From: Amphiura filiformis | Lineage: Eukaryota | Direction: 5' to 3' | Length of the DNA: 64,000 nt | Assembly (NCBI RefSeq): GCF_039555335.1 | Contig: NC_092647.1 | Span: forward strand, 18,820,946-18,884,945 | Part shown: positions 4,721 through 46,578 of the stretch, piece by piece | How the letters are laid out: each line of letters opens with the position of its first letter | How positions within the stretch are numbered: position 1 is the stretch's first letter | Program-made: the position numbers and the translations under genes | The notes under the pieces: generated by a model | Seen by the model: only the letters and a program-made list of their open reading frames with translations | Database searches by the model: none | What the model was told of the DNA's origin: nothing

Positions 4721-4874
4721 CAACTGCCCAACAAGCACCCTTAATGTAAATGTAAAACAGAGGGGGCTATTTACTGCCTTATATTCAGTCTCATATGGAC
4801 TGATTACGAGTGTGCGTTCAGTCGCATACAGTCTGAATATTAGAGAGACCAGGTTGGAATTCGTTCATGTCTTT

Positions 4875-5063
4875 TCATTTCATATGACAGTGTGAAGCTT
4901 TTGTTGCAATATTGGCAAGTATAAGGCTTCTCTTTCGTATAAATTCGTTCATGTATTTTAAATACATGAACGAATTTATGCTACTTGCCTGTGTGAAGCT
5001 GTTGTTGCAGATTTGGCACGTATAAGGTTTCTCTTTTGTATGAATTCGTTCATGTGCTTTCAA
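4875..5063 (-). CDS. ZF gene A distal degenerate fingers (3' terminus), containing a small palindromic inverted duplication
   Basis: HERIHTKEKPYTCQICNNSF.. finger motifs. AAATTCGTTCATGTATTTTAAATACATGAACGAATTT palindrome disrupts a finger. Confidence 0.5.
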   Translation of the reverse strand: MKAHERIHTKEKPYTCQICNNSFTQASSINSFMYLKYMNEFIRKRSLILANIATKASHCHMK

Positions 5064-5125
5064 GTTTCCTGGAGTTATAAAACGCAGTATTCATTGCAGT
5101 ATGTAAGGAGTCTCGTTGGTATGAA

Positions 5126-5581
5126 CTAGTTCAAGCTGCAAGTTGCAAGACTGTGTGAAGCCTTTATTGCATTTTTGACATATGTGTAAAGCTCCTCTCT
5201 CGTATGAATTCTTTCATGTCTTCTCAAGCTACAAGCCTGTGTGAAGCTTGTGTTGCAGATTTGGCAAGTATAAGGTTTCTTTTTTGTATGAATTCGTTCA
5301 TGTGCTTTCAAGTTACCTTTCAGTGTGAAGCCTTTATTGCAATATTGACATAAGTAAGGCTTCTCTTTCGTTTGAATTCGTTCATGTATTTTCAAGTAAC
5401 GGGACTTTGCGAAGCCTTTGTTGCAGACTTGGCAAGTATAAGGCTTCTCTTTTGTATGAATTCGTTCATGTATTTTCAAGTCACTTGACTGTGTGAATCC
5501 TTTGTTGCAATATTGACATATGTAAAGCTTCTCTCTCGTATGCATTCGTTCATGTCTTTTCAAGCTACCCAGCAAACACAA
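5126..5581 (-). CDS. ZF gene A fingers 11b-15 downstream of the MITE-a insertion (continuation of CDS 6234-7523)
   Basis: Starts ..SLKRHERMH, which is exactly the missing half of the finger broken at 6260. There are 4 more fingers. One has a H-to-Q ligand change (HERIQ). Confidence 0.65.
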   Translation of the reverse strand: MCLLGSLKRHERMHTREKLYICQYCNKGFTQSSDLKIHERIHTKEKPYTCQVCNKGFAKSRYLKIHERIQTKEKPYLCQYCNKGFTLKGNLKAHERIHTKKKPYTCQICNTSFTQACSLRRHERIHTREELYTYVKNAIKASHSLATCSLN

Positions 5582-6259
5582 AACGTTTTCGACATCATTC
5601 GCAAAAGGTTATAAAAGGTTGTCGGAAAACGTTTAAATGTCGGGTTATATAAAAGGTACATTAATGGTATAAAACGTCTTCATAACATTAAATAACATTT
5701 GTTGGTAATTTACTGCACAGCAAACACAAATGTTTTACAGAAAATATTTAAATGTCGAGTTATATAAAGGGTATAAAAACGTTTTAATAACATTCCAAAA
5801 ACATTTGTGAAAACTTGGTACAAATCATTCCAAACAGAATGTTATTTTGGGGTTGAAAAAATATTTTGCAAAAAATGTTTGCCCAAAATATTTAAAATAA
5901 CGTTTTTAAAATGTTTTCACGACCTTTATAAAACCCGACATTTAAATGTTATTAAAACGTTTTGTAAAAAACATTTAAAGAACATTTCTGTGTTTGCTGG
6001 GTGCAAATATTTTAATATAATGTTATTTAAGTGTTGACAAAATATTTGACCAAAAATGTTTGCAAAAATAGTTTACAATGACATTTCGAAAACATTTTAA
6101 AAATATTGTTGTAGTGTGTTTTCATACAAAACGTTTTAAAACGATTTCATGACCTTTATATAACCCGACATTTTAATGTTATTAAAACGTTTTACCTAAA
6201 CCAAAACCCAAAATATAACTTATTTAAAACGTTTTAAAAACGTTTTTGTGTTTGCTGGG
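5568..6259. mobile_element. composite MITE-a insertion #1 (692 bp): TIR CCCAGCAAACAC/GTGTTTGCTGGG, flanking TA duplication, internal nested copy 5713-6004
   Basis: The ends are perfect inverted repeats. TA is present at 5566-5567 and 6260-6261. The internal 292-bp unit has its own TIRs of about 70 bp (CAGCAAACACAAATGTTTTA..TAAATGTCGAGTTATATAAA). It is 92% identical to the copy at 56483-57173. Confidence 0.7.
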
Positions 6260-7523
6260 TACCTGACTGTATGAAGCTTTTGTTGCAGATTTGGCAAGTG
6301 TAAGGTTCCTCTTTTGAATGAATTCGTTCATGTATTTTCAAGGCACATGACTGTGTGAAGCCTTTGTTGCAGTATTGGCATATGAAAGGCCTCTCTTTCG
6401 TATGGATTCGTTCATGTATTTTCAAGGCACATGACTGTGTGAAGCCTTTGTTGCAATATTGACATGTGTAAGGCGTCTCGTTGGTATGAAATCGTTCATG
6501 ATATTTCAAGTAACCAGACGTTGTGAAGCCTTTGTTGCAGTATTGGCAAATATAAGGCCTTTCTTTGGTATGTATTCGTTCATGTATTTTCAAGTTCCCA
6601 GACTGTGCGAAGCCTTTGTTGCAGTATTGACATATGAAAGGCTTCTCTTTCGTATGAATTCGTTCATGTGTTTTCAATTCACCAGACTGTGTGAAGCCTT
6701 TGTTGCAGTATTGGCATATGAAAGGCTTCTCTTTCGTATGGATTCGTTCATGTGTTTTCAAGTGACCTGACGTTGTGAAGCCTTTGTTGCAGTATTGGCA
6801 TATGAAAGGCTTCTCTTTCGTATGAATTCGTTCATGTCTTTTCAAGTTACCTGACGTTGTGAAGCCTTCGTTGCAGTATTGGCATATGAAAGGCTTCTCT
6901 TTCGTATGGACTCGTTCATGTATTTTCAAGGCACATGGCTGTGTGAAGCCTTTGTTGCAATATTGACATATGTAAGGCGTCTCGTTGGTATGAATTCGTT
7001 CATGTGTTTTTAAGTTCCCAGACGTTGTGAAGCCTTTGTCGCAGTATTGGCATATGAAAGGCTTCTCTTTCGTATGGATTCGTTCATGTGTTTTCAAGTG
7101 ACCTGACTGTGTGAAGCCTTTATTACAGTATTGACATATGAAAGGCTTCTCTTTCGTATTATTTTGTTTATGTACATTTACCTTACTGATTGAAAACGGT
7201 TTGTCAAAATTTTGACCTTGATAAAATACCAATTGCGAATCGTTCTCATTGGTTGGTTTGCTTGATGAACCATTACCACTTGTCCATTGGTCAAGAGATG
7301 GTGACGTCAAATAACCATCGCTTCTGCTATTATCGGAGGTCTTTATATTTCTGCTTGGAATGGGTATCAATTTCTTCTTATAGTCATACCAATATGCACG
7401 AATCCACAGCTCATGACGCAGATGACGCAGATATCGATGATTATTATTAAAGAACCTTCGTCTGCAATATTTACACACGTGAGGCATCAGGTATTCCCAT
7501 TCTCGTGGTCTTCTTAGAGGCAT
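6234..7523 (-). CDS. ZF gene A: N-terminal domain (about 135 aa) plus 10 C2H2 fingers and the first half of finger 11. The stop is provided by the MITE-a insertion.
   Basis: ORF of 429 aa. ATG at 7521-7523 preceded by ..CATTCATTGCAG. C-x2-C-x12-H-x3-H units with HTKEKP(F/Y) linkers. Confidence 0.8.
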   Translation of the reverse strand: MPLRRPREWEYLMPHVCKYCRRRFFNNNHRYLRHLRHELWIRAYWYDYKKKLIPIPSRNIKTSDNSRSDGYLTSPSLDQWTSGNGSSSKPTNENDSQLVFYQGQNFDKPFSISKVNVHKQNNTKEKPFICQYCNKGFTQSGHLKTHERIHTKEKPFICQYCDKGFTTSGNLKTHERIHTNETPYICQYCNKGFTQPCALKIHERVHTKEKPFICQYCNEGFTTSGNLKRHERIHTKEKPFICQYCNKGFTTSGHLKTHERIHTKEKPFICQYCNKGFTQSGELKTHERIHTKEKPFICQYCNKGFAQSGNLKIHERIHTKERPYICQYCNKGFTTSGYLKYHERFHTNETPYTCQYCNKGFTQSCALKIHERIHTKERPFICQYCNKGFTQSCALKIHERIHSKEEPYTCQICNKSFIQSGTQQTQKRF

Positions 7524-8090
7524 TCCTGCAATGAATGGTAAAAAGCAATCTGTCTAATTAAGGCAACATTACGAATTTGAGAAAACTATTTCATTATTGG
7601 GTTACTTGTTAGTTCTACTTTCACGGGACTGTTCCAATTGTATGCCTCCTTGTAGGCGTTTCTGATACAAATTATATGCGAGGCTATTCTTTACTTGATT
7701 TGGAAGTCGTTAAGGGTAGACGAAGCAATTGTTGGTCGAAGCAACCTAAAAATCGATTTTCATTATCTTGATCAATATATTATTGAAAAATTACACCTTG
7801 ATGTTTTGCAAAAGTTCATTCTACAAATCGTATACTTTGCAAACTTGCTTAATTTATTGTTGTTAATGAGTTATGTACGTTTTACAAAAGTGTTGTTGTT
7901 TCAGCCCTCTTTACAACATAACTCAAGAACCACAGGACCTACAAAAGTATATCTGTGATATTTTAATTCTTCTACACAATCGCTATGAATTGAGCAATGC
8001 AGTTTTTGCCAAAGCTCACTACCATTCGTACGATGCTGTGAACTACCAAATCACAACAGTTTAAAATAATCAATAACCTTAAAGACATTT
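7524..8090 (-). promoter_or_regulatory. conserved upstream region of gene A (intron 3' end/promoter). Homologous blocks lie upstream of genes B, C, E, G and pseudogene F.
   Basis: 7524-7700 is about 90% identical to 28556-28750. 7700-8070 is about 80% identical to 25480-25800. A splice-acceptor-like YYYYCAG lies directly before the ATG. Confidence 0.4.
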
Positions 8091-9294: not shown

Positions 9295-10810
9295 TATGTA
9301 AGAGTTGAAACCTAATCAGATCTGATAATTTAACACAATTTGCTGTCTTGAATTTAATACAAAAATAAACATAAACATTTCTGTCGACAGTGTTTGTTAA
9401 AGTTCCTTTAATGATGACTAAGTGCAATTACTAAGCTAAAAGAACAGTATGATATTTGATTGGACCACAACTATTATCAACGTTCAACAGTTCAATATTT
9501 ACTTTTCTTCAACAATCCCAATAAACATACATATGAAAGGAAGTAACCTAACAATATACTTAGCATGATCGTCGTGTAAAGCCGTCAAATATACAGTATT
9601 TAGCAAAAGTGGGTGTTCTTGATGTATTTATCAAAAGCACACTCTGCCAATTAAATTATAATGAACTTCTAAACAAAACTGGATTCAACATCAAGCCAGT
9701 TTACTATGTTTATAATACCATCTCAAAATATTCACGTTTTGTGTAAATATTTTTACAAAACAAAGGACTCCAGACTGAGTCCTCACTCAGGTCCACCAGG
9801 CTGAAAGAAGTAATTCTGTTGGGTCAACTAGACCATGCAATATACAAAACAGAGAACCGTAAAAAAGAACACCTAAATTACCATGCTGCACATTATGAGA
9901 ATAAACTGGGTTTGCTGCAACCATGTATTGTTTGCTTTCGTTTGCAATACATTATAACATGCGCATCTACAATATGGTTCAATTGCAACAAGTTTAAGTG
10001 TACTTACTTGGAAGTGAGCTTAGAGGCTCTCGGATATGACCAGTTAAACGTTTCAGTTGTAGATTGATCACTGCCGTAATCCTGGAATTGACAATTATAA
10101 TTATTTGCTGAGCTTCGAGTGTATTTAACGTAAAAACGTACTTCCACAGCTACTGGATATGGTGGTTTTACGTGCGTTTTTAAAATACCACTGCCCTGTC
10201 CTATGATTCCACATGAGAGTGAACAATAATTAAGTAGGCTATATGTTATCTGGTTTTAAGCAACGCGTCCAAAGGTCGATCGATATGCATACACGATGTA
10301 GAGATTGAAGCTGTGTAATGCACGTTTTTGAATATTGCTCATTGTTCTACTTATTTTGATTGACAGCTACTTAAAGTACCTCTAATGAATGTAAACATGT
10401 ATGTATTGCTTGGAATGAGAACATGATACATTGCGTCGTGATTATGATTGAGTTGAAATCACTTGTATTTCACCGTCAGATTTGTCAAATCCATTTTGTT
10501 AATTGGTAGATTACATTTTGAATCAGGATATCAAGCGGAAACTAGAGCCTCTGCCCTCAATTCGTACATTTTATCAACATCGTTTAATTGCTGGCATATT
10601 CTAATACGCCTAACCTTCTAAAGAAAGAGAGTTTTAGGCTATACATACAACATATACAAAGAATAATAATATGCGTGAATCAAACAGCATGTGTATAAAT
10701 ATTAACTCTATAATCTTTATGTAAAAGTTTTACAAAAGATTTCTGTATCTTTTACGCTCGCTTGTGTAATTTTATTATGATTCTTATGAATTTCTTCTTT
10801 CACATTGGAT
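9295..10810 (+). repeat. intergenic spacer segment A (copies at 24240-25300, 31060-31900, 37255-38170, 49930-50720), ending in a relic finger-like sequence
   Basis: Multi-hundred-bp identity among the five copies, all in + orientation. The terminal CACATTGGATGTGTGAAGAGCTTTATGTGCAAGG resembles a degenerate ZF unit. Confidence 0.5.
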
Positions 10811-12960: not shown

Positions 12961-15540
12961 ATGTTTTTCTTATTTATTCAATCTCTTATTTATTTATTTA
13001 TTTATTTACTACTTATTTACCATTATACTTTTTTTTCTTCTTCTTACCCTGTCATTTGTGCTCTATCATTCATTATTATTCTTGGTAGGTTTCCGCCTCA
13101 CACCACCTGTGTTTCTACTGCCTTAACTTCTTTTAGTGTATTAAACCCTCTTGTTTTTGTATTAAGTGTTTTTCGTATCTATATAATTGTTGTATGTTGG
13201 TATTTTATGGCAGAAAAGTGTAATAATTGCTGTAAATTGATTTTAAGACATCATTCTCATATATCATGTACTTCTTGTAATTATTTATATCATACCCGTT
13301 GTGTTTATACTGATGTTGACAATCACCTAGATTGGTTTTGTTTCAAATGTACTGGTAACCTTTTCCCTTTTAACCATTATGTCGATGACGACGAGTTCAG
13401 ATTTGCCTTATTTTGTTTTGACAATACAATTGAGTTTAATCGTATGCTTAGTTTGAAATTAAATCCCTTTAACTTTGAAGATATGTTTCGGACATCATCC
13501 AATGAATCTATTAATTTGAATGAGCACACAAGCCCTCTCAATAATTGTTCTTATTTATTTGACAACGATATTACCTGTTCAGGTGATAATGATTTTTCAA
13601 TTTTGCATTTCAATTCACGTAGTCTCAACAAAAATTTTGATAACATTCATAGCTTTATTTCTGGACTAAGTCACACTTTTACAATTATTTCCATTTCAGA
13701 AACGTGGTTAAATGATGACAATTTTAATATGATTGATATTGAAAATTATGTTCTCGTTAATGCACCCCGACAAGGTAGAAGAAGCGGTGGCTCTGCTATT
13801 TATATTCATGATTCAGTTGCTTACCGTGAAAGGGAAGATCTTAAATTAATTGTTGAATCATCTGATGACATCGACCACTCTGAGTCTGTATTTATTGAAA
13901 TTTTAAATTCTGTTAACAAAAATATAATTGTGGGTAATATTTATCGTGCACATCGTACTAATGTAAATATGTTCCTTACTGACTTGGAAAATTGTGTTGC
14001 TAAATTGTCGTGTGAAAATAAGCAGTGTTATGTTTCTGGCGATTTTAATTTTGATTTATTACAGTATACTAACAATAACACAATTAATGATTTTCTCAAT
14101 ATTTTTTACAATAATAATATGCACCCACTGATTGACAGGCCTACTAGAATAACACCCACTACCGCTTCTTTACTTGACAATATTTTTACAAATGTCCTCA
14201 CACACCAAATAAAATCTGGTATTTTCGTTAGAGGCTTAACTGATCATTACCCTATTTTTCAAATTACCAAATCTATTCCTCTTACACACCCACGCCACCA
14301 CCAGCATACAACATATCGTTTAATTAATCAAAATAGAATCCGAAATTTTCAGAATCATTTAAAACTGGTTGATTGGAATTTTGTTGAAAACATAGGTTCT
14401 TGTGAGCCTGCCTACATGGCTTTTCTTAATAAATTTTCTGATTTATATAACATTCATTTTCCCTTGAAATCGTCTCGCTCTAGTAGTTCCAGTAGTCGTC
14501 GAACTCCTCGCAAACCGTGGATTACAACAGCTGTCCTTAAATCTATTGTTCGAAAGGAAAAACTTTACAGAAAGTATGTCGGTCATCCAACAGAGTCTAA
14601 TAAAACGAATTATCATGTTTATCGCAATCGACTGACTTCTATCATTAGGTCTTCCAAAAAAGATTACTACGCTGAGAAACTAGAGAATTGTAAAAATAAC
14701 TCAAAACGAACTTGGAATATTTTAAATTCCATTCTAGGTCGCCAACATAGGCTTGATCTTCCAACCATGTTTAACATCAATAACGTTTCAACTTCGGATT
14801 CTCAGCATATTGCAGATAATTTCAATTCATATTTTGTTAATATTGGCTCTAAATTAGCTAGCAAAATTCATCAACCAAATACTGATTTTCGTGAATTTTT
14901 AATTAATGCTCATTCTCCTGTTAACTCACTCTTTTTTTCACCCACCAACTTCGATGAAGTAGTCAATCTTTGTATGGCACTGAAGCCTGGGGCAAGCTGT
15001 GGTCATGATGAAATCAAACCCGAGGTTATTAAAGCAGTCAGCACCTTAATCGCAACCCCACTTGTCCACATTTTTAATTTATCCCTGTCTTCTGGTTTTG
15101 TTCCCCACCAACTCAAGATCGCTAAAGTTGTTCCCATTTTTAAGATGGTGATCGCCACGATTCTTCCAATTATAGACCAATTTCAGTTCTTCCTGCTTTT
15201 TCAAAAGTTCTTGAGCGTCTGGTCCACAAGAGGTTGTACAATTTTATTTCCCGATTTAATCTACTTCATAACTCCCAATTTGGTTTTCGTTCTAACCGTT
15301 CCACATCTATGGCCATCATGGAAGTCTACAATAAAATTGTTAACGATCTCGATAACAAAAATCACGCCCTTGGTATCTTCCTGGACCTCTCGAAGGCATT
15401 CGACACGGTTAACCATGATATTCTTTTTTCAAAACTCGCTCATTACGGTATTCGTGGGAATGCCTTCGATTGGTTCAGGAGTTACCTTACTGATAGGTCC
15501 CAGTTCGTTAACTTTAATCATCGTAAATCAATTCATTTGA
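12961..15540 (+). CDS. LINE-1 ORF: PHD-like finger, APE-type endonuclease and RT N-terminal region (real start probably ATG at 13207)
   Basis: PHD-like CNNCCKL..HHSHISCTSCNYLYHTRC..CFKC. Endonuclease motifs FNSRSL, SETWL, SGDFNFDLL, LTDHYPIF. The first 80 aa are low-complexity and not credible. Confidence 0.75.
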   Translation: MFFLFIQSLIYLFIYLLLIYHYTFFSSSYPVICALSFIIILGRFPPHTTCVSTALTSFSVLNPLVFVLSVFRIYIIVVCWYFMAEKCNNCCKLILRHHSHISCTSCNYLYHTRCVYTDVDNHLDWFCFKCTGNLFPFNHYVDDDEFRFALFCFDNTIEFNRMLSLKLNPFNFEDMFRTSSNESINLNEHTSPLNNCSYLFDNDITCSGDNDFSILHFNSRSLNKNFDNIHSFISGLSHTFTIISISETWLNDDNFNMIDIENYVLVNAPRQGRRSGGSAIYIHDSVAYREREDLKLIVESSDDIDHSESVFIEILNSVNKNIIVGNIYRAHRTNVNMFLTDLENCVAKLSCENKQCYVSGDFNFDLLQYTNNNTINDFLNIFYNNNMHPLIDRPTRITPTTASLLDNIFTNVLTHQIKSGIFVRGLTDHYPIFQITKSIPLTHPRHHQHTTYRLINQNRIRNFQNHLKLVDWNFVENIGSCEPAYMAFLNKFSDLYNIHFPLKSSRSSSSSSRRTPRKPWITTAVLKSIVRKEKLYRKYVGHPTESNKTNYHVYRNRLTSIIRSSKKDYYAEKLENCKNNSKRTWNILNSILGRQHRLDLPTMFNINNVSTSDSQHIADNFNSYFVNIGSKLASKIHQPNTDFREFLINAHSPVNSLFFSPTNFDEVVNLCMALKPGASCGHDEIKPEVIKAVSTLIATPLVHIFNLSLSSGFVPHQLKIAKVVPIFKMVIATILPIIDQFQFFLLFQKFLSVWSTRGCTILFPDLIYFITPNLVFVLTVPHLWPSWKSTIKLLTISITKITPLVSSWTSRRHSTRLTMIFFFQNSLITVFVGMPSIGSGVTLLIGPSSLTLIIVNQFI

Positions 15541-16370
15541 ATACAAGTTGTGGAGTTCCACAGGGCTCGATCTTAGGCCCCTTATTATTCATTTTATATA
15601 TAAATGACATTGTGTTTACAAGTAAATTCTTCTCATTTGTCATCTATGCTGATGACACTAATTTATTGGCTTCACATAAAAATCTCCATCACCTCATACA
15701 TTCAGCTAATATCGAACTTACAAAAATTTCCACATGGCTTAAAGTAAACAAACTTTCCCTTAATATTAAAAAGACCACGTATATGTTATTTAAAAACAAA
15801 CACAACACGCGCTTAACGTATCCAGACACCATATCAATAAATATTGAAAACAAACCTATCTCAAGGGTCTCTCACACAAAATTTCTCAGGATAATTCTTG
15901 ATGATTCTCTAACATGGCATCAACATAACACTTATATTACAAATATTGTTTCGAAGTATTCAGGTATCCTTTATCGTCTTAAACACATACTTTCTGGCTC
16001 AACGTTATTTTCTCTTTATTCTAGTTTGGTTTTACCACATATTCAATATTGTAATATCATTTGGGCCGACAAGAATAATTGCTATTTACAATCTATTTAT
16101 CTCAAACAAAAGAAAATTGTCCGTTTATGCACCAACTCACATTACCTTGCACACACACAACCTTTGTTTAAGAGATTAAATACACTTACAGTCTTTGATA
16201 TTTACAAATATCAAATTTCCCTCTTATGTATAAGTTCAAAAGTGGCTTACTCCCAAATATTTTCACTGATTATTTTAAGAAGAGTAATACCTTCCATTCT
16301 TATGGAACCAGGTCAGCTGAACTGTATAGACCTCACAACTTCAGAACAGATCTTGCAAATAACACAATGA
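15234..16370 (+). CDS. LINE-1 reverse transcriptase (post-frameshift segment)
   Basis: [42 protein letters not shown] (YxDD) motifs. Confidence 0.8.
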   Translation: MYNFISRFNLLHNSQFGFRSNRSTSMAIMEVYNKIVNDLDNKNHALGIFLDLSKAFDTVNHDILFSKLAHYGIRGNAFDWFRSYLTDRSQFVNFNHRKSIHLNTSCGVPQGSILGPLLFILYINDIVFTSKFFSFVIYADDTNLLASHKNLHHLIHSANIELTKISTWLKVNKLSLNIKKTTYMLFKNKHNTRLTYPDTISINIENKPISRVSHTKFLRIILDDSLTWHQHNTYITNIVSKYSGILYRLKHILSGSTLFSLYSSLVLPHIQYCNIIWADKNNCYLQSIYLKQKKIVRLCTNSHYLAHTQPLFKRLNTLTVFDIYKYQISLLCISSKVAYSQIFSLIILRRVIPSILMEPGQLNCIDLTTSEQILQITQ

Positions 16371-18110: not shown

Positions 18111-18489
18111 CGTGAAGATAATGTTAAAAGTTAGGTTAGAAAATATTTCCATTATATTCATTACATTTCTCTTTCATGTGACACCACTAAAAGGGTCATA
18201 CCTTCTTGAAATTTAAAAATATGTCCATTTCAGACAAAAACGTTACTAAGTGCAGAAATAAGGAAGTCATGAAATAAGGAAATAACATAAACTAACATAA
18301 GCTAACACTATCTTACGGTTCACCAAAAAAAAAGCTAATACCTTTTCATGGTTCTCAAAAACACTACTACACATCACTCAACCAAACCTTTCAACAAAAC
18401 GCCAAACGATATATTAGGCTCCTGACTGAGCAACAGTTGCTCTAGTTCTCTTTTGAATTAGCTCGTTCATATAGTTTTAAATGAGTTAT

Positions 18490-18794
18490 ATTTTGGGGTA
18501 TAGTTTTGGTAAAAACGTTTTAATAACATTAAAATGTCGGGTTATACAAAGGTCATCAAAACGTTTTTAATACATATTAAAACACACTACAACGAACTTG
18601 TTGTCAAAATGTTATTGTAAAATGTTTTTGCAAACATGTTTTAACAAATATTTCGTCAACACCTAAGTTACATTATGTTATAAAAACGTTTTATACTCTT
18701 TATATACCTTTTATATAACCCGACATTTACACGTTTTTTGGCAATCTTTTTAACCTTTTGTGAATGTTGTCGGAAACGTGTTGTGTTTGCTGGG
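18490..18794. mobile_element. partial MITE-a (right TIR GTGTTTGCTGGG at 18783-18794) forming the 3' end of ZF gene B
   Basis: TTATATAACCCGACATTTACACG..GTGTTTGCTGGGG junction abutting a finger. The same junction is found at 26817-26828 (gene C). Confidence 0.55.
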
Positions 18795-19501: not shown

Positions 19502-19677
19502 TCCAATCTGAATTCGTTCATGTATTTGTAAGTTCCCAGATTGTGTGAAACCTTTGTTGCAGTATTGGCATATATAAGGCTTCACTTTGGTATGGATACG
19601 TTCATGTCTTTTCAAATAAACAGAATGTGTGAAGCCTTTGTTGCAGTATTGGCATAGGTAAGGCTTCTCTTTTGTAT

Positions 19678-21193
19678 CAAACTGTGTAGACTCTCATTCA
19701 TCTGGGTATGTTGAAATTAAGATTTAATTTAAATCTGGTCAACCAGACATACCTATTTTTGACGGACGAACCGACGTTGCGACTGAAACCTTCAGTCTTC
19801 AGCTGGGTTGTGATGCAAATGACCTTGAGTACCGGACACTTCCGGTATTGATGACAATCGACGAGGAATGTCCTTTATGATCCTGTCCCAGCCGTGTGAA
19901 CACTTCATGAACGGACAAACTTGTCTCCTGATCAATTATGTGATCTACTTAGTCTCTGCTTAGATAACACCTACTTTTCGTACAGTGGAAAATTTTACCA
20001 ACAATGTCATGGATGTTCCATGGGTTCGCCCGTCTCACCGATTATCGCTAACTTGTATATGGAAAGATTTGAGCGCATTGCTTTGTCAATTTTTCCCGGT
20101 ATAGCGCCATCTAGATGGTATCGATACGTGGATGATACTTGGATTTTAATTAAATCCAACGAACTTGATAGGTTTTTCAACCACATCAATGAAATCGATC
20201 CCCATATCAAGTTCACGCAGGAAGGAGTGTCAAATAACAAACTCGCGTTTCTTGACTGTTTAGTGTCCGTGGAAGAAGATCGCTCCCTTACTGTGTCTGT
20301 TTATCGAAAACAGACACACACGGACCAGTACCTTCAATTCGGTTCCAATCACCCGCTCATTCAGAAACTCGGCGTGGTCAACACCTTGTTCCACAGAGCT
20401 GAGTCGATCATCACCAAAGACTCAGATAAGATTGCTGAACAACAACATCTTCGCAAAGCGCTGGGTAACTGTGGTTACCAGGACTGGGCCATAAACAAGG
20501 CCTTGAACAAGGACAGCAATAAACCCACCGCCAGTAGCACGAATCAGACGGGGAGAACAACAAGTATTACCATCCCATATCACGGAGACTTATCGGAAAA
20601 ACTCAAAAGAATCTATCGCGACCACGGAATTACCACCCACTTTAAACCAACGAACACGATCCGCCAGTCCTTAGTGCATCCCAAGGACAAGCAGCCCAAG
20701 GGGAGAATCAGTGGAGTGGTCTACGGGGTCCGCTGTTCCGAAGAGCAAGCCTGTCAAGACTCTTACATAGGAGAAACCGCCCAACCTCTTCACAATCGCA
20801 TGTTACAACATCGCAGAGCCAGCTCAGGTGGAAACGACTCATCAGTGTATTTACATTTGAAAGCCACCGGACACCATTTTGACACCAAGGATGTCCGAAT
20901 CCTAGATCGCGAGCATCGTTGGTTTGAGCGTGGAGTGAAAGAGGCAATCTGGGTGAGGGCTGAGCAACCATCCCTCAACCGCGGTGGCGGTGTCCGGGCC
21001 AAACTATCACACGGCTGGGACAGGATCATAAAGGACATTCCTCGTCGATTGTCATCAATACCGGAAGTGTCCGGTACTCAAGGTCATTTGCATCACAACC
21101 CAGCTGAAGACTGAAGGTTTCAGTCGCAACGTCGGTTCGTCCGTCAAAAATAGGTATGTCTGGTTGACCAGATTTAAATTAAATCTTAATTTC
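19678..21193 (+). mobile_element. truncated Penelope-like retroelement with inverted-repeat termini of about 195 bp (19713-19899 versus 21007-21193) and a 10-bp TSD TCTTTTGTAT
   Basis: Inverted repeats are near-perfect. TSD at 19668-19677 and 21194-21203. The right IR encodes the last 36 aa of the ORF. Inserted in a ZF finger. Confidence 0.8.
19921..21114 (+). CDS. Penelope-like RT (C-terminal motifs, YVDD) fused to a GIY-YIG endonuclease
   Basis: GSPVSPIIANLYME, WYRYVDDTWIL, then GVVYGVRC..YIGET (GIY-YIG). Confidence 0.8.
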   Translation: MSPDQLCDLLSLCLDNTYFSYSGKFYQQCHGCSMGSPVSPIIANLYMERFERIALSIFPGIAPSRWYRYVDDTWILIKSNELDRFFNHINEIDPHIKFTQEGVSNNKLAFLDCLVSVEEDRSLTVSVYRKQTHTDQYLQFGSNHPLIQKLGVVNTLFHRAESIITKDSDKIAEQQHLRKALGNCGYQDWAINKALNKDSNKPTASSTNQTGRTTSITIPYHGDLSEKLKRIYRDHGITTHFKPTNTIRQSLVHPKDKQPKGRISGVVYGVRCSEEQACQDSYIGETAQPLHNRMLQHRRASSGGNDSSVYLHLKATGHHFDTKDVRILDREHRWFERGVKEAIWVRAEQPSLNRGGGVRAKLSHGWDRIIKDIPRRLSSIPEVSGTQGHLHHNPAED

Positions 21194-22839
21194 TCTTTTG
21201 TATGATTTTTGTCATGTGTTTTCAAGTCACTAGACTGTGTGAAGCTTTCTTTGCAGTATTGGCACATGTAAAGCTTCCCTTTGGCATGAAGTAGTTTATG
21301 TGTTTTCAAGTTACCTGACTGTGTGAAGCATTTGTTGCAATATTGGCACATGAAAGGCTTCTCTTTCGTATGAATTCGTTCATGTATTTTCAAGTAACCA
21401 GACGTTGTGAAGCCTTTGTTGCAGTATTGGCATATGAAAGGCTTCTCTTTGGTATGAGTTCGTTCATGTGTTTTCAAGTTACCAGACTGTGTGAAGCCTT
21501 TGTTGCAGTATTGACATATGAAAGACTTCTCTTTCGTATGAATTCGTTCATGTCTTTCCAAGTCAACAGACCGTGTGAAGCCTTTGTTGCAGTATTGGCA
21601 TTTATATGGCTTCTCTTTGGTATGAGTTCGTTCGTGTGTTTTCAAGTGATTAGACTGTGTGAAGCCTTTATTACAGTATTGGCATATATAAAGCTTGTCT
21701 TTGGTATGAATTCGTTCGTGTGTTTTCAAGCTATTTGACCGTGTGAAGCATTTGTTGCAATATTGGCACATGTAAGGTTTCTCTTTCTTATGAATTCGTT
21801 CATGTGTTTTTAAGTTCCCAGATTGTGTGAAACCTTTGTTGCAGTATTGGCATATGAAAGGCTTCTCTTTGGTATGGATACGTTCATGCCTTTTCAAGTG
21901 ACAATAATGTGAGAAGCCTTTGTTGCAGTATTGACATGGGTACGGCTTCCCTTTTGTATGAATTTGTTCATGTGTTTTCAAGTCACTAGACTGTGTGAAG
22001 CATTTGTTGCAGTATTGGCATATGTTAAGCTTTCCTTTGGCATGAAGTAGTTCATGTGTTTTCGAGGTACCTGACTGTGTGAAGCATTTGTTGCAATATT
22101 GGCATATGAAAGGCTTCTCTTTCGTATGAATTCGTTCATGTGTTTTTAAGTTCCCAGACGTTGTGAAGCGTTTGTCGCAGTATTGGCATATAAAAGGCTT
22201 CTCTTTCGTATGAATTCGTACATGTATTTTCAAGTAACGAGACTGTGCGAAGCCTTTGTTGCAGTATTGACATATGTTAGGCTTCTCTTTCGTATGAACT
22301 CGTTCGTGTGCTTTCAAGTTACTAGACTGTGCGAAGCCTTTGTTGCAGTATTGACATATGTAAGGCTTCTCTTTCGTATGAATTCGTTCATGTCTTTCCA
22401 AGTCAACAGACTGTGTGAAGCCTTTGTTGCAGTATTGGCATATGTAGGGCTTCTCTTTTGTATTATTTTGTTTATGTACGTTTACCTTACTGATTGAAAA
22501 CGTTTTGTCATAATTTTGACCTTGGTAAAATAACAGTTGCGAATCGTCCTCCTCGTTCGTTTTTTTGCTTGATGAGTCATTACCACGTGTCCATTGGTCA
22601 GGAGAGGGTGACGTCAGAAAACCATCGCTTCTGCTCTTATCGGAGGTATTTATATTTCTGCTTGGAATGGGTATGAACTTCTTCTTATACGAGTAGTCAT
22701 ACCAATATGCACGAATCCACAGCTCATGATGACGCAGATGATGAAGATATCGATGATTATTATTAAAGAACCTTCGTCTGCAATATTTACACACGTGAGG
22801 CATCAGGTAATCCCATTCTCGTGGTCTTCTTAGAGGCAT
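21055..22839 (-). CDS. ZF gene B: N-terminal domain plus about 16 fingers. The last 46 codons (21055-21193) are read-through into the Penelope IR.
   Basis: MPLRRPREWDYLMPHVCKYCRRRFFNNNHRYLHHLRHH... ATG at 22837-22839 preceded by TTTCAG. Confidence 0.75.
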   Translation of the reverse strand: MPLRRPREWDYLMPHVCKYCRRRFFNNNHRYLHHLRHHELWIRAYWYDYSYKKKFIPIPSRNINTSDKSRSDGFLTSPSPDQWTRGNDSSSKKTNEEDDSQLLFYQGQNYDKTFSISKVNVHKQNNTKEKPYICQYCNKGFTQSVDLERHERIHTKEKPYICQYCNKGFAQSSNLKAHERVHTKEKPNICQYCNKGFAQSRYLKIHVRIHTKEKPFICQYCDKRFTTSGNLKTHERIHTKEKPFICQYCNKCFTQSGTSKTHELLHAKGKLNICQYCNKCFTQSSDLKTHEQIHTKGKPYPCQYCNKGFSHYCHLKRHERIHTKEKPFICQYCNKGFTQSGNLKTHERIHKKEKPYMCQYCNKCFTRSNSLKTHERIHTKDKLYICQYCNKGFTQSNHLKTHERTHTKEKPYKCQYCNKGFTRSVDLERHERIHTKEKSFICQYCNKGFTQSGNLKTHERTHTKEKPFICQYCNKGFTTSGYLKIHERIHTKEKPFMCQYCNKCFTQSGNLKTHKLLHAKGKLYMCQYCKESFTQSSDLKTHDKNHTKEKLRFNLNLVNQTYLFLTDEPTLRLKPSVFSWVVMQMTLSTGHFRY

Positions 22840-22922
22840 TCCTGAAATGAATGGTAAATAGCAGTCTGTCTAATTGAGGCAACATTACGAATCTGATAAA
22901 CCATTTCATTATTGGGCTACTT

Positions 22923-23010
22923 CCCAGCAAACCCAAAAATGTTTTGAAAGAGTATAAACGTGTTATAAACACGATTTGGTTTTGGTCAAAACGTTTTAAG
23001 AACAAAAAAT
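22923..23010. mobile_element. MITE-a fragment (CCCAGCAAACCCAAAAATGTTTTGAAAG...) about 84 bp upstream of the gene B ATG
   Basis: Left TIR-like end. The conserved upstream block of the other paralogs is truncated here. Confidence 0.4.
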
Positions 23011-23211
23011 GTAGGTAATGGTGAATCCATCGGACGAGGACCCAAATCAAGTATCAATAGTCATGATGTTACCTTTAATATGAACAACTGGAAAGAAAGA
23101 GAGTAAGGTACTCCAACTTGACGTGGGCAAACAAGTAAAATACAGACTATATAACATTCAATAACTAAATAGCATTTAACTCAATAACATTCAAACGTCG
23201 GGTTATGTAAA

Positions 23212-26580: not shown

Positions 26581-26828
26581 CAAAGGTCATCAAAACGTTT
26601 TTAATACATATTAAAACACACTACAACGAACTTGTTGTCAAAATGTTATTGTAAAATGTTTTTGCAAACATGTTTTAACAAACATTTCGTCAACACCTAA
26701 ATTACATTATGTTATAAAAACGTTTTATACTCTTTATATACACTTTATATAACCCGACATTTACACGTTTTTTGGCAATCTTTTTTAACCTTTTGCGAAC
26801 GTTGTCGGAAACGTGTTGTGTTTGCTGG
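26580..26828. mobile_element. partial MITE-a forming the 3' end of ZF gene C (right TIR at 26817-26828)
   Basis: Same finger/MITE junction sequence as at 18794. Confidence 0.55.
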
Positions 26829-27245
26829 GGCGTCTCTTTGGCATGACTTCTCTCATGTGTTTTCAAGTTACCTGACTTTGTGAAGCCTTTGTTGCAGTAT
26901 TGACATATGTAAGGCTTCATTTTTGTATGAATTCGCTCACGTGATTTCAAGTTACCTAACTGTATGAAGCCTTTGTTGTAGTATTGACATTATGTAAGGT
27001 TTCTCTTTGGTATGGATACATTCATGTCTTTTCAAGCTACCTGACTGTGTGAAGCCTATGTTGCAGTATTGGCATAGGTAAGGCTTCTCTTTAGTATGAA
27101 CTTGCTCATGTGTTTTGAAGTCACTAGACTGTGTGAAGCATTTGCTGCAGTATTGGCATATGTAAAGCTTCCCTTTGGCATGGAGTAGTTCATGTGTTTT
27201 CAACTTACCTGACTTTGTGAAGCCTTTGTTGCAGTATCGGCACAT
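26702..27245 (-). CDS. ZF gene C distal fingers (two ORF pieces, 26952-27245 and 26702-26950, separated by 1-bp indels), ending inside the MITE-a
   Basis: Finger motifs. The C-terminus ..HAKETPQQTQHVSDN.. is encoded by the MITE-a TIR. Confidence 0.6.
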
Positions 27246-28555: not shown

Positions 28556-28750
28556 TCCTGAAATGAATGGTAAAAAGTAATCTGTCTAATTAAGGCAACA
28601 TTACGAATCTGAGAAAACTATTTCATAATGGGTTACTTGTTAGTTCTACTTTCACGGGACTGTTCCAATTGTATGCCTCCTTGTAGGCGTTTCTGATACA
28701 AATTATATGCGAGGCTATTCTTTACTTGATTTGGAAGTCTATAAAGGCAT
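28556..28750 (-). promoter_or_regulatory. conserved upstream block of gene C
   Basis: About 90% identical to 7524-7700. Confidence 0.4.
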
Positions 28751-30809: not shown

Positions 30810-31900
30810 CATTTATCCAACTTCAAATATCTGGGATTAACGATGGCCTAGTACCAGCGACCGATCCAGGCGGAAAGCCTGGACTGGTTTTAGGAAGTTA
30901 GTGCACCTTCGAAGAAGTCCATCAATCTCCATCGTAATTAAAATCAGGCTTTTCAACACCAACCAGAGATGCTATTGCCTCAGTAGTTGTGGATCGTGGA
31001 GAAACTTTGTAGTCGTCTGCTCTGAATTCAAATGAAATGAAATAATGCCAAACGTCTCATAGTACTTAAATAATAAATTTTCACCTTTCAATATTTACTT
31101 TTCTTCAACAATCCCAATAAACATACATATGAAAGGAAGTAACCCAACAATATACTTAGCATGATCGTCGTGTAAAACAGCCAACATTTACAGTATTTAG
31201 CAAATAATTTAAGTGGGTGTTGTTGATGTATTTATCAAAAGCGCACTCTGCCAATTAAATTATAATGAACTTTTAAACAAAACTGGATTCAACATCTCGC
31301 CCAAAGTGATAACATTACCCACTGTTCAGTAGCCACTTGATTATTACGAATACTTCAGTCAGTGTGCTATGTTTAAAATGACCATCTAAAGTGACAAACT
31401 AAAAATATTCACGTTTTGTGTAAATATTTTTGAAAAACATTAGGACTCCAGACTGGGTCCAGACTCATATCCAGTAGGCTGAAAGTACTTATTATGTTGT
31501 GTCAACTAGACCATCATGACCATGTGATGTACAAAACAGAGAACCGTAAAAAAGGACAACGGAATTGCTATACTGCACATGAATTCTATGGTGTTCTTGA
31601 TGTAGTTACATCAATCGCACTCTGTCAATTAAATCATAATACATTTCTGAACAGAACTGGATTCAACATCTCGCTCAAAGTGTTAACATTACCCACTGTT
31701 AATGGAACTCAATAGCCACATGATCATTTCTAAAGTGACAAACCGAATACGTTCACGTTTTGTGTAAATGTTTTTGAAAAACATTATGGAGCTATAATCA
31801 GGAGCTATAATCACAGACCCAACAGTCATATCAAACGGATTCAACGATTTCTTTGTTAATGTAGGACCTAAATTAGCATCTCCTATTCCACTGATTTCTT
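30810..31900 (+). repeat. spacer segments B+A copy with an internal duplication of about 160 bp, truncated by the LINE-2 insertion
   Basis: Homology to 8278-8520 and 9480-9800. 31190-31450 and 31600-31800 duplicate each other. Confidence 0.5.
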
Positions 31901-32470
31901 GCGTACATTGGAAACGACACCCCCTGGTTCAAAAGCCGTTGTTGACTGTGGTATCTCCGCACAATTATGCAGGCATCTGGACTCTAAATCTTCTCCGTTA
32001 TCCTTGTCCTTTTCATCAGAATCCGCTTCAAAGTTCTCAATCACAACCTAACAGAAAAACTAAGCGCTGGAAAAAGCGTGGAAAAAAAGGTGGTCGCAAA
32101 TCACGACTACAGAACCTTGAACCAAACCCCATCCCCGTGCTCATAACTACTAGACTGGTTTCACCCACCCATTGTCAGTCTTCTGTAAATCACAAGTTCT
32201 TGCGTTCATTTCAAAGACAAAATGATAGAAATGTTAACATTCGACAATGGAACGCACGCTCAGTCCGTAAGAAAACTGTGGCAATTAGCGAAAACATCAT
32301 TGAAAACGATGTTGACATTTTCGTGATCACCGAAACTTGGCTTGCTGAAGACGACCCAGTAGTGATAGGCGAACTGCTACCCCCCGGGTATTCATTTATG
32401 AATTTCCCCAGAAAAAGTAGTGAGCATGGCGGTATTGGTATTGTTCACAAAACCCAACTGAGCCTTCAGA

Positions 32471-33940
32471 GTGCTCCTACATGCCAGTGTAATTGTCAAA
32501 AAAACTGGACTTAGAATAATATCAATCTACCGTCCCCCTCCGTCCAAAGAAAATGGGTTTAAAACGAGTGATTACCTGTGTGAATTTGAAGCTTTCTTAG
32601 ATGAAATTTGTCTCACTCCGACAAAAACCATTCTCCTTGGGGATTACAACATTCACGTTGATCTACCTTCTAAGCCAGAGGTGTCTAGGTTTCTGGATGC
32701 CCTCACCGTCAATGGTCTTCACCAGCATGTTGATTCACCAACACATAAGGATGGTCACATACTGGACCTCGTCATATCACGTCCTGAAGATGACCTAGTG
32801 GACAAGTGTTGTGTTTTGCCAGGCTTAGGATCTGATCACAAGTTGGTATACTGGACCTTAAATTGTATTAAACCAGCGCCACTCAGGGTTACGTCAATTG
32901 TTAGGAACATTAAAAACATTGACGCGATTTTATTTGCAAATGATCTTAAATCTGAAGTTGGAGGTCTTGATGCTCGGGGTCCTGTCGATGAGATGCTCGA
33001 TAAATTTGATTTATCCGTGTCTGGTGTGTTCGACGTTCATGCACCTCCTCGACAACGATCTCGGAGTATCAAACCTCGGCTTCCTTGGTGTAATGAAGAC
33101 ATTAATGTTGCCAGACGTGAAAGGAGAAGGATTGAGCGTAAATGGCGCAAATCCAAGAGTAATGTAGATCTTGAAGCCTATGTTGAGCAAACTAAATATG
33201 TCAGTAAATTAATCCAGTGTGCTAAGGAAGTATACTATAATGATATTCTTGAGTCTGCCGATACTAAGAACATGTACTTTACCTTAAACAAACTGTTGAG
33301 TAAGAACACTAGACAACTGCCTGATGCAGAATGTATGATTGAATTGTGCAATTCATTTGCAAGGTACTTTACTCAAAAGGTAATTAAGATCAGAAATGAA
33401 CGCGATGCAACACCTGTTACGTATAATGCTGCCCATACTATACTTGATGAGAGTTCTAACCTTAACACACCATCTTTTTGTGAGTTTAGGCATGTTTCTG
33501 CTGATGATATCAAGAAAATTGTGCTCGCAACACCTAACAAGACTAGTTCTTTAGACACAATTCCTATGGAGTTGCTCAAAGATAATATCAATGTTTTGAT
33601 CCAACCTCTTGCCAGTATATCGTTCATCAATCACTCAGTAGCGGAGTATTTCCTTCAAAACTTCGTGAGGCGGTGGTATCTCCCATCCTCAAAAAATCCA
33701 CGCTTGACAAAAACATCCTTAAGAACTACCGCCCTGTCTCAAATATCAGGTACCTCTCGAAAATCATGGAGAAAATTGCTTGTGCTCAAATCAAAGATCA
33801 TCTCAGTACCAATTGCCTTCTTGAGGATTTCCAATCTGCGTACAGACAGCAGCACAGCACGGAGACGGCTTTACTACGAGTCGAAACGGATATCCTGTGT
33901 GCTTTGGACAATTATAAGGCTGTGGCTGTTGTGTTGTTAG
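32471..33940 (+). CDS. LINE-2 endonuclease and RT N-terminal segment
   Basis: See element evidence. Confidence 0.65.
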   Translation: MLLHASVIVKKTGLRIISIYRPPPSKENGFKTSDYLCEFEAFLDEICLTPTKTILLGDYNIHVDLPSKPEVSRFLDALTVNGLHQHVDSPTHKDGHILDLVISRPEDDLVDKCCVLPGLGSDHKLVYWTLNCIKPAPLRVTSIVRNIKNIDAILFANDLKSEVGGLDARGPVDEMLDKFDLSVSGVFDVHAPPRQRSRSIKPRLPWCNEDINVARRERRRIERKWRKSKSNVDLEAYVEQTKYVSKLIQCAKEVYYNDILESADTKNMYFTLNKLLSKNTRQLPDAECMIELCNSFARYFTQKVIKIRNERDATPVTYNAAHTILDESSNLNTPSFCEFRHVSADDIKKIVLATPNKTSSLDTIPMELLKDNINVLIQPLASISFINHSVAEYFLQNFVRRWYLPSSKNPRLTKTSLRTTALSQISGTSRKSWRKLLVLKSKIISVPIAFLRISNLRTDSSTARRRLYYESKRISCVLWTIIRLWLLCC

Positions 33941-34461
33941 ACCTATCCGCAGCCTTCGACACTGTAGATCATCAGATACTGTTGAAACGGCTTTCGAATA
34001 CTTTTGGTATTTCTGGAACAGTCCTGAATTGGATAAGATCCTATCTCAAGGACCGCTCATTCCGGGTGTGTCTGGGGGATAATTCGTCCATTAATCACAC
34101 GCTTGACTTCGGCCTCCCACAAGGATCTGTTGTTGGACCTTTATTCTTCAGCATGTATACTTATCATATCGGTGCCATCATACGGAATCATAACATCTGC
34201 TACCATATGTATGCCGATGATGTCCAACTTTATCTGACGTTCAACCCAAAAGTGGATGGAGACGGTCATCGAGCAGTGACCAGATTGGCAGCCTGCATTG
34301 ATGAAATTAGTGCATGGATGACTCAGAATAAACTGAAACTTAACAATGATAAGCCGTTACATTACCACAGAAAGTTGCCATCATCTTGTCCGTGCTCTGA
34401 TTCTGTCCCGGCTCGACTACGCCAATGCTCTGATGTTTGGGATTTCGGCCAAAGACCGTAA
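33673..34461 (+). CDS. LINE-2 RT core
   Basis: FDTVDH, YADDVQLY. Confidence 0.7.
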   Translation: MVSPILKKSTLDKNILKNYRPVSNIRYLSKIMEKIACAQIKDHLSTNCLLEDFQSAYRQQHSTETALLRVETDILCALDNYKAVAVVLLDLSAAFDTVDHQILLKRLSNTFGISGTVLNWIRSYLKDRSFRVCLGDNSSINHTLDFGLPQGSVVGPLFFSMYTYHIGAIIRNHNICYHMYADDVQLYLTFNPKVDGDGHRAVTRLAACIDEISAWMTQNKLKLNNDKPLHYHRKLPSSCPCSDSVPARLRQCSDVWDFGQRP

Positions 34462-46462: not shown

Positions 46463-46578
46463 GCTAGACACAGAAACAGTTAATTGGATTAGCAAATACA
46501 CTCAGTTGATAGCAAACGCTCTCCAAAAATTAGGAAGACAAATTTAATGAACAAACTAAATTTTAATCACAAAGTAAC

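Follow-up and report, generated by a model that had tools for sequence, protein, structure and literature searches.

MITEs, among them nested or composite elements and elements lying in genes, are short, A+T-rich, and noncoding, are bounded by terminal inverted repeats (TIRs) and a short target-site duplication, have the potential to form hairpins, and occur as diverged copies; where they enter exons, the insertion creates a premature stop. Introner elements are DNA transposons that give rise to introns; a MITE-like element within coding sequence that carries GT and AG near its ends resembles them. Vertebrate KZFP-type birth-and-death clusters consist of tandem paralogs on one strand, whose fingers repeat every 84 nt within a single large terminal exon; decayed fingers follow the stop, duplications are frequent, and transposable elements disrupt genes. 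Harbinger relatives make target-site duplications of 0, 2, or 3 bp. ITm elements, the Stowaway-like and Tc1-mariner group, “generate 2 bp TSDs of TA in general” (PMC10045372), and the PHIS superfamily (PIF/Harbinger-ISL2EU-Spy) leaves no duplication or one of 1 to 4 bp (PMC10045372). CMCT elements (EnSpm/CACTA-Mirage-Chapaev) have duplications of 2 to 5 bp and termini that are mostly 5'-CA..TG-3' (PMC12730594).

The window analyzed here is the whole 64,000-nt stretch of Amphiura filiformis DNA. Positions 5568 to 6259 are a MITE insertion that splits a finger of a zinc-finger gene, an event of an ordinary kind that shares the MITE features listed above and shows no difference in kind from MITEs in exons. 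The gene, gene A, is a minus-strand C2H2 gene interrupted within one finger by a 692-bp element. The features of the locus are as follows:

4850 to 5125, minus strand: decayed tail of the finger array (from the finger map), including ORF 4875-5063; the finger remnants here no longer keep the frame and show a stop, a loss of 3 nt, and an insertion of 17 nt.
5126 to 5565, minus strand: in-frame continuation of gene A once the element is excised (in-silico excision and finger map), comprising the second half of finger 11 (5565-5540), four further 84-nt units, and the opening part, as far as the stop at 5126, of a frameshifted unit.
5566 to 5567, unstranded: downstream copy of the TA target-site duplication, flanking the element.
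5568 to 5583, plus strand: TIR at the gene-distal end, CCCAGCAAACACAAAA, a perfect 16-nt reverse complement of 6244-6259.
5568 to 6259, unstranded: composite MITE, 692 bp, 73.6% A+T, without coding capacity (boundaries and length from the sequence).
5716 to 6001, unstranded: nested 286-bp related MITE within the outer MITE, with termini CACAGCAAACAC and GTGTTTGCTGGG.
6234 to 6259, minus strand: element-derived C-terminal codons (..TQQTQKRF) and premature stop (6234-6236), from the ORF translation.
6244 to 6259, minus strand: TIR at the gene-proximal end, the reverse complement of 5568-5583.
6260 to 6261, unstranded: upstream copy of the TA target-site duplication, flanking the element.
6260 to 7523, minus strand: 5' part of the large exon of gene A (ORF 6234-7523 and finger map), starting with an N-terminal region that has a single atypical finger, continuing through ten regular C2H2 fingers, and breaking off midway through finger 11 (TGC at 6296-6294 to GGT-A at 6263-6260).

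Read in gene sense, the sequence across the insertion is ..TTCATACAGTCAGGTA|CCCAGCAAACAC...GTGTTTGCTGGG|TAGCTTGAAAAGACATGAACGA.., and the ORF as it stands ends ..IQSGTQQTQKRF*, with a stop codon that belongs to the element. When the element and one TA were excised in silico, the codons GGT AGC (Gly-Ser) were regained, ORF 6234-7523 ran in frame into ORF 5126-5581, and the ORF measured 567 aa, compared with 429 aa when interrupted. Excision restored the finger ..CQICNKSFIQSGSLKRHERMH.., which covers the complete zf-C2H2 profile (positions 1-23 of 23), and the spacing of finger anchors over the excised junction is exactly 84 nt, as in the other units. The junction peptide matched Pfam zf-C2H2 (E = 2.4e-14) and zf-H2C2_2 (3.5e-18). 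The reconstituted empty-site junction is TTCATACAGTCAGGTAGCTTGAAAAGACATGAACGAATGC, and a reconstituted junction of 240 nt aligned without gaps to at least 25 uninterrupted paralogous finger pairs at 83 to 86% identity. The original prediction had held that a MITE precisely splits this finger, that ORF 5126-5581 continues ORF 6234-7523, and that the element supplies the premature stop. The first is borne out by the TIR and TA boundaries, the restored finger, and the 84-nt phase, and the other two agree with the in-frame 567-aa translation and with the position of the stop inside the element.

Tandem C-x2-C-x12-H-x3-H units, conserved linkers, and matches to zf-C2H2 identify gene A as a C2H2 poly-zinc-finger gene, with 10 canonical fingers upstream of the insertion (all 10 in the intact 429-aa ORF), 3 downstream, and the restored split finger. 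An earlier figure of about 17 fingers is replaced here by a census of 15 regular and 4 decayed fingers plus an atypical one at the N terminus. Downstream of the insertion, the HERIQ finger has lost its last His, a zinc ligand. Beyond the 15 regular fingers lie four decayed units at spacings of 83, 81, 101, and 84 nt; in them the frame shifts, an internal stop occurs, and ligands have been lost. ORF 4875-5063 had been assigned to the same gene; that assignment does not hold, as the restored ORF terminates at 5126 and ORF 4875-5063 stays outside it, in the decayed, frameshifted tail. The decayed units and the regular fingers are one ancestral array but not one intact gene. Immediately 5' of the gene A ATG is an acceptor-like CAG|GA that is kept in 5 of 5 paralogs.

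The element combines TIRs and a target-site duplication with small size, no coding capacity, and multiple dispersed copies. Each gene-sense frame contains 10 to 15 stop codons, and the sole ORF of at least 40 aa inside the element is a 76-aa GTG ORF on the opposite strand, without finger or transposase features. Its DNA fold is a nested hairpin (−134 kcal/mol, z = −16.8). An inner pair of termini (5716-5727 and 5990-6001), the basis for the term “composite,” bounds the nested MITE, which is flanked by direct TG/TG at 5714-5715 and 6002-6003; the 692 bp are made up of about 404 bp of outer element and the nested 286 bp. Allowing up to one mismatch, the window contains 11 occurrences of the 12-nt terminus against 0.23 expected, and none of 100 shuffled controls matched that count, so the occurrences are not due to chance.

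Six family loci lie in the 64-kb window. The copies away from gene A are as follows:

18474 to 18794, unstranded: family member without the nested MITE, sitting in a finger linker (HAKKT|P) in the opposite orientation; a deletion has removed its distal terminus.
26587 to 26829, unstranded: duplicate of the 18.5-kb copy within a duplicated segment, 97% identical and truncated by a separate deletion.
46237 to 46464, unstranded: family member of 228 bp that lies outside coding sequence, flanked by a TA/TA duplication (sequence comparison).
56483 to 57173, unstranded: second full-length composite MITE copy, 691 bp, in the paralogous zinc-finger gene E (92.9% identity).

The copies in genes E and A have the same orientation relative to their genes. 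In gene E the element sits at a linker/finger start between AT/AT duplications (56481-56482 and 57174-57175) and truncates the ORF at ..PYIPANTKTF*; excising it with its own AT duplication also regains the frame. Because the nested structure is common to the 5568-6259 and 56483-57173 copies, and because their inner and outer parts have diverged to the same extent (93.0% and 93.4% identity), the composite unit moves, or arrived, whole. The comparison of the two copies indicates that the 692-bp composite was not assembled at the gene A site and that it transposes as one unit. The nested structure claimed in the original prediction is retained, and the two events at this site that the term “composite” suggests are not. 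The copies at 18474-18794 and 26587-26829 align colinearly with the outer element once the inner MITE is left out, and these un-nested relatives at 18.5 and 26.7 kb, with the 228-bp TA/TA member, establish a family.

The four complete duplication pairs are TA at two loci (the gene A copy and 46237-46464), AT at the gene E copy, and TG at the nested copy. Because AT and TG duplications occur besides TA, the family is not TA-specific; TA describes the duplication of the gene A copy and not the family. A zero-duplication model, in which an extra terminal base forms part of the A and E elements, was also considered. The “extra” bases are complementary between the copies (A..T versus T..A), and the model was rejected because a duplication explains them without two coordinated mutations.

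Like Stowaway-like and Tc1-mariner (ITm) elements, the family makes 2-bp duplications, which are TA at the gene A copy and 46237-46464, but the AT and TG of other members depart from the TA specificity of that group. A 2-bp duplication is compatible with PHIS (PMC10045372, PMC12730594). The duplication length also fits CMC(T), whereas the outer termini here are CC..GG and only the nested copy begins with CA. No transposase gene with these termini was found within the 64-kb window. A full-text literature search with the 12-nt terminus of the family, whose termini are CCCAGCAAACAC, gave chance primer matches only. In metagenome contigs, the most conserved family 19-mer gave five chance matches limited to 19- to 24-mers and without TIRs. 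The MITE family is apparently undescribed so far. A LINE reverse transcriptase is also present in the window; its best matches are contigs from ENA, JGI, and Logan with no more than 79% identity, the top one coming from run SRR28925088.

The two full-length copies differ by 7.1%. Gene A differs from gene E by 18% and from its closest paralogs, C and B', by 8 to 9.5%. Judged by these distances, the insertion postdates the separation of genes A and E. The element divergence (7.1%) is somewhat below the distance of gene A to C and B', and we infer an intermediate age rather than a demonstrably recent one. The insertion had been called recent on the strength of its untouched frame. A junction only a few codons long is a poor guide to age even when intact, so an intact frame does not imply recency, and the 7.1% divergence, the ligand lost from the HERIQ finger, and the retrieval of no empty-site allele give that claim no support. 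An exact-protein look-up of the 429-aa ORF in public assemblies returned no record, and a search with the restored 567-aa protein for an intact allele or orthologue returned generic poly-ZNF proteins only, at 54% identity or less. The empty sites are paralogous only, namely, the uninterrupted finger pairs (at least 25) colinear with the junction. As no allelic or orthologous empty site was retrieved, mobility at the gene A site rests on paralogous comparison and the target duplication.

Very probably, a nonautonomous cut-and-paste MITE of about 404 bp, already carrying a nested 286-bp relative, moved as a 692-bp unit into the coding sequence of a lineage-specific tandem C2H2 gene. The element integrated at a TA that overlaps the Gly-Ser codons of regular finger 11, and that TA was duplicated. 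Because the element carries stops in all frames, the reading frame now closes 9 codons into it. An ORF of 567 aa with 15 regular fingers is thereby cut to one of 429 aa with 10 complete fingers plus half of another, and 4.5 downstream fingers are left as an untranslated remnant. Transposase was presumably supplied by an autonomous partner, itself unseen, whose target duplications are 2 bp long and not strictly TA, and transcripts probably terminate in, or read through, the A+T-rich element, where an ATTAAA at 6177 is a candidate site after which they might end.

Gene A belongs to a cluster that resembles the vertebrate KZFP type in each of the features named above. It differs in having no KRAB or SCAN domain, an orphan N-terminal region of 122 aa, and finger linkers without the usual Gly (T-K-E-K-P-Y/F). 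The N-terminal 122 aa, which are specific to the family, had zero homologues among 5.8 billion proteins and no Pfam match. Every one of the five paralogs in the window that carry the N terminus is disrupted, whether by MITEs, a retroelement, or frameshifts, and the gene A insertion appears to be one of several disruptions in a birth-and-death zinc-finger cluster. Finger arrays make up 13% of the window and hold three of the five independent insertion events found in it; the 692-bp composite accounts for two of these three, with matching orientation in two different paralogs. It is conceivable, though we think it unlikely, that the MITE family prefers, or is retained in, the finger arrays of this lineage-specific orphan zinc-finger family, acting as a recurrent “truncation cassette” (a stop codon and an A+T-rich 3' end) that tunes finger number.

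Other origins for the interrupted frame were weighed. In a cluster this repetitive, any two fragments have about a 1-in-3 chance of being compatible in frame, and the two ORFs might be unrelated neighboring finger fragments joined by rearrangement, with the restored frame a coincidence. We regard this as extremely improbable: the break coincides exactly with the ends of a TIR-bounded element and its 2-bp duplication, removal regains one complete finger and the exact 84-nt phase beyond frame alone, and gene E carries an equally clean, restorable break made by the same element. That the element is an intron, introner-like or exapted from a MITE, which is spliced out so that the full-length 15-finger protein is still produced, is highly unlikely. 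Its gene-sense boundaries read CAG|GTACCC (5') and ..TGCTGGGTAG|C (3'), resembling introner elements in having GT and AG near the ends, and the gene E copy with its duplication is 693 bp, a multiple of 3. However, a splice from GT (6262) to AG (5565) takes 698 nt and yields ..QSA*, out of frame, when restoration needs exactly 694 nt, and splicing of the element was rejected at the sequence level on account of this out-of-frame product. A GT is missing from the 5' boundary of the gene E copy (..TTACAT|CCCAGC), B and B' carry the element in the opposite orientation, and further family members sit outside genes. At the level of sequence the element does not act like an introner: its available GT..AG pair fails to keep the frame, and elsewhere the copies are inverted or have no such sites.

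A further alternative concerns function; the structural reading is the same under it, and only the functional reading differs. Gene A may have been a dying pseudogene when the MITE arrived, so that the insertion followed from relaxed constraint instead of causing the inactivation, a scenario that we consider possible but rather doubtful. The disruption of all five N-terminus-bearing paralogs in the window is consistent with it, as are the four decayed units in the gene A tail, the N-terminal domain without homologue or Pfam match, and the concentration of three of five in-window insertion events in finger arrays. Against it, the upstream 429-aa ORF is intact, with all ten fingers canonical, and the 4.5 downstream units remain in frame at a strict 84-nt period with one ligand lost. 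The tail at 5125-4850 decayed independently of the MITE, and gene A may already have been degenerating before the insertion, but decayed fingers past the stop also occur in paralogs D and E and may be a normal feature of the 3' end. A search for tail lesions common to genes A and D found none, and because the lesions are not common, the comparison is uninformative for dating the decay.

With the interruption read as a MITE insertion, ORFs 6234-7523 and 5126-5581 can be annotated as one MITE-disrupted gene, and likewise 57149-58642 and 56051-56494 for gene E. The 692-bp unit suits a repeat library as a single family consensus, accompanied by its shorter relatives. A new question would arise only if finger arrays proved to be targeted genome-wide, or if the family proved to represent a new transposon lineage whose 2-bp duplications are not TA. 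The locus adds to the cases in which transposable elements drive the turnover of a tandem zinc-finger cluster that is evolving fast.

The interval that interrupts gene A, a minus-strand C2H2 zinc-finger gene, has the following parts.

5568-6259: bounded element, 692 bp
5566-5567 and 6260-6261: TA flanks, one on each side
5716-6001: inner piece, 286 bp, with a second pair of termini and direct TG/TG flanks

Terminal inverted repeats (TIRs), a flanking duplication, A+T richness, stop codons, and hairpin folding are standard features of miniature inverted-repeat transposable elements (MITEs), and by these features 5568-6259 is a MITE. In gene sense (minus strand) its boundaries read ..AAAAGCTTCATACAGTCAGGTA/CCCAGCAAACACAAAAACG ... 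CGTTTTGTGTTTGCTGGG/TAGCTTGAAAAGACATGAACGAATGCAT.., and its ends are perfectly reverse-complementary over 16 nt (CCCAGCAAACACAAAA). At ≤1 mismatch the window contains 11 occurrences of the 12-nt terminus versus 0.23 expected, and 100 dinucleotide-preserving shuffles never gave that many. A+T makes up 73.6% of the element, which carries 10 to 15 stop codons per gene-sense frame and, as single-stranded DNA, folds on itself as a nested hairpin (-134 kcal/mol; z = -16.8 versus shuffles). ATTAAA hexamers at 6177, 6016, and 5788 are unremarkable for a sequence with 74% A+T.

With the element in place, ORF 6234-7523 encodes 429 aa and terminates in ..CNKSFIQSGTQQTQKRF*. Excision in silico of 5568-6259 plus one TA joined it with ORF 5126-5581 into one 567-aa ORF, with the junction ..EEPYTCQICNKSFIQSG/SLKRHERMHTREKLY... 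The junction peptide fits the Pfam zf-C2H2 profile from end to end (positions 1-23 of 23; E = 2.4e-14) and also fits zf-H2C2_2 (E = 3.5e-18). The 84-nt period of the anchor CATGAACGAAT, which runs across all ten upstream fingers, also holds from anchor 6332 to anchor 5554, where the element was excised, and then for four more units. The reconstituted 240-nt junction aligned without gaps, at 83-86% identity, to at least 25 finger pairs that stand uninterrupted at other places in the window, which we interpret as paralogous empty sites. The restored ORF, the full Pfam finger, the preserved phase, and these empty sites therefore bear out the core of the original prediction, that the MITE splits a finger of gene A and that ORF 5126-5581 continues its frame. 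Two neighboring gene A fingers at 6318-6464 (minus strand) share the same protein sequence (CQYCNKGFTQSCALKIHERIH twice), suggesting that a unit was recently duplicated, or gene-converted, inside the array.

Two shorter relatives, 18474-18794 and 26587-26829, align colinearly with the outer element once the inner piece is left out (BLAST matches to element positions 1-121 and 443-663, with which alignment agrees), and the inner piece can be aligned with a 228-bp member at 46237-46464. The focal unit is therefore an outer MITE of ~404 bp that carries a nested relative. A second full-length composite lies in gene E, another of the zinc-finger paralogs.

56483-57173: second composite copy, 691 bp, 92.9% identical to the focal copy
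56051-58642, minus strand: gene E, one gene made up of ORFs 57149-58642 and 56051-56494

The internal termini and TG flanks recur in this copy, so the nesting predates arrival at 5568-6259 and the composite is the transposing unit; inner and outer parts have diverged equally between the two copies (93.0% and 93.4% identity). The gene E copy has the same orientation to its gene and a different site, at a linker or finger start (..GAGACGCCTTACAT/element/ATATGCCAATACTGC..), and its target duplication is AT, not TA. It cuts the ORF short at ..PYIPANTKTF*, and removing it with one AT gives back CCT TAC ATA TGC CAA TAC TGC (P-Y-I-C-Q-Y-C) as well as a 7-codon linker; the five fingers downstream remain canonical and in frame. 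It is an insertion independent of that in gene A.

Other members of the family were found in the window.

46237-46464: short member, 228 bp, noncoding; duplication TA/TA, second terminus degenerate (GTGTTTGCTAGC)
18474-18794 and 26587-26829: un-nested member in a finger linker, a pair from a segmental duplication
22923-23211: degenerate member, 84 nt upstream of the gene C acceptor-like site and ATG, far end unrecognizable

Complete duplications across the family are TA, TA, AT, and TG, and the copy shared by paralogs B and B' has GC on its single preserved side. TA is in general the target duplication of Tc1/mariner-type elements (PMC10045372), and a family that includes AT and TG departs from that pattern. 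Some PHIS and CMCT-clade lineages make 2-bp duplications, but typical CMCT termini are CA..TG (PMC12730594, PMC10045372), whereas those here are CC..GG. A literature text search returned no description of the family and a metagenome scan no match; it seems to be undescribed.

Comparisons bearing on the age of the insertion
Composite copies in genes A and E: 7.1% diverged (27 transitions, 21 transversions, 3 gap columns; global alignment)
N-terminal regions of genes A and E: 18% diverged
Gene A and the paralogs nearest to it, C and B': 8-9.5% diverged
MITE copies in B and B': 97% identical
Finger sequence flanking the B and B' copies: 94% identical

The focal insertion is younger than the split of genes A and E; the 7% is an upper bound, because the copies could have diverged before inserting. 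The B and B' copies are common to a segmental duplication, and in each the distal terminus was later removed by a separate deletion that runs into a downstream finger. Since its TIRs are still perfect and its duplication intact, the focal insertion appears younger than theirs. Calling it recent, as had been done from the untouched finger frame, goes too far: up to ~3.5% divergence per copy is beyond the usual sense of the word, and a few undamaged codons at the junction support it weakly. The exact 429-aa protein had no record in public assemblies in a search for alleles or orthologues, and the restored 567-aa protein matched only generic zinc-finger proteins in protein databases (≤54% identity), with no allele or orthologue.

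We postulate that a non-autonomous cut-and-paste element, mobilized in trans, integrated at a TA within finger 11 and generated the 2-bp duplication. Its stop codons cut the protein back to ten complete fingers, and transcripts may end inside, or read through, the A+T-rich element. The structural part of this explanation, insertion of a non-autonomous element in finger 11 that truncates gene A, is very probably correct. An intron-like (introner) element is disfavored: the sole boundary GT..AG pair takes out 698 nt and yields ..QSA*, the boundary GT is absent from the gene E copy, and the B copies are inverted. For practical purposes, the exact restoration of phase at two independent copies rules out a chance juxtaposition of unrelated finger fragments.

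The most serious rival, which we consider unlikely, is that gene A was already degenerating when the MITE arrived; it differs from the insertional truncation in the functional reading alone. The last histidine is already gone from one of the four downstream fingers in frame (HERIQ, ~5386), and Leu replaces Pro in two linkers. The restored ORF ends at 5126, and past the 15th regular finger the unit spacings are 83, 81, 101, and 84 nt; these units include a frameshift and a stop in frame, zinc ligands have been lost, and in one unit a small inverted duplication at 4953-5010 (minus strand; AAATTCGTTCATGTATTT / AAATACATGAACGAATTT) has inserted 17 nt. ORF 4875-5063, originally predicted to be part of the same gene, falls in this decayed tail beyond the restored stop; it belongs to the same ancestral array, but its reading frame cannot be recovered. 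Decay with other lesions is also seen in the tails of paralogs D and E. Three of five independent insertion events in the window fall inside finger arrays, which make up 13.4% of it (binomial P ~0.02, a value skewed by the way in which the window was read); insertion tolerance in dying genes, or local hopping, explains this excess equally well.

At least five family genes form a minus-strand tandem array; their ATGs are at 7523, 22839, 28555, 49357, and 58642.

7524-7570, 22840-22885, 28556-28600, 49358-49400, and 58643-58690, minus strand: pyrimidine-rich pre-ATG sites
7158-7523, minus strand: gene A N-terminal region, ~122 aa (MPLRRPREWEYLMPHVCKYCRRRFFNNNHRYL..), with paralogous N-termini in the other genes

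Because an acceptor-like ..yyyCAG/GA directly before the ATG is conserved in all five paralogs, the large ORFs are probably terminal exons, which suggests that an earlier exon or the 5' UTR lies elsewhere. None of the five N-terminal regions matched Pfam, and the N-terminal 122 aa of gene A had zero matches among 5.8 billion public proteins; linkers are TKEKPY/F, without the usual Gly. The genes form an orphan, lineage-specific zinc-finger family.

All five paralogs are disrupted by MITEs, an RVT_1-bearing retroelement fragment, or frameshifts. The fragment (Pfam RVT_1; 19660-21200, with ORF 19921-21114 on the plus strand) appears to interrupt the gene C array (ORF 21055-22839), which seems to resume at 18.8-19.65 kb; gene C therefore probably includes "gene B" as its 3' part. 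LINE-like ORFs take up much of the intergenic space. Two LINE-like remnants, at 12961-16370 and 31939-35060 (plus strand), carry an RT domain in one case and an endonuclease-RT domain in the other; their closest relatives are metagenome or SRA contigs (≤79% identity). Identical 24-mers paired at 9517-9540 / 31113-31136 and 9908-9931 / 37394-37417 point to another dispersed repeat family, and window G+C is ~36%. It is well known that MITEs insert in exons, that nested MITEs spread as one, and that transposons drive the decay of tandem zinc-finger clusters, and this is a familiar fast-evolving zinc-finger cluster with birth-and-death turnover.
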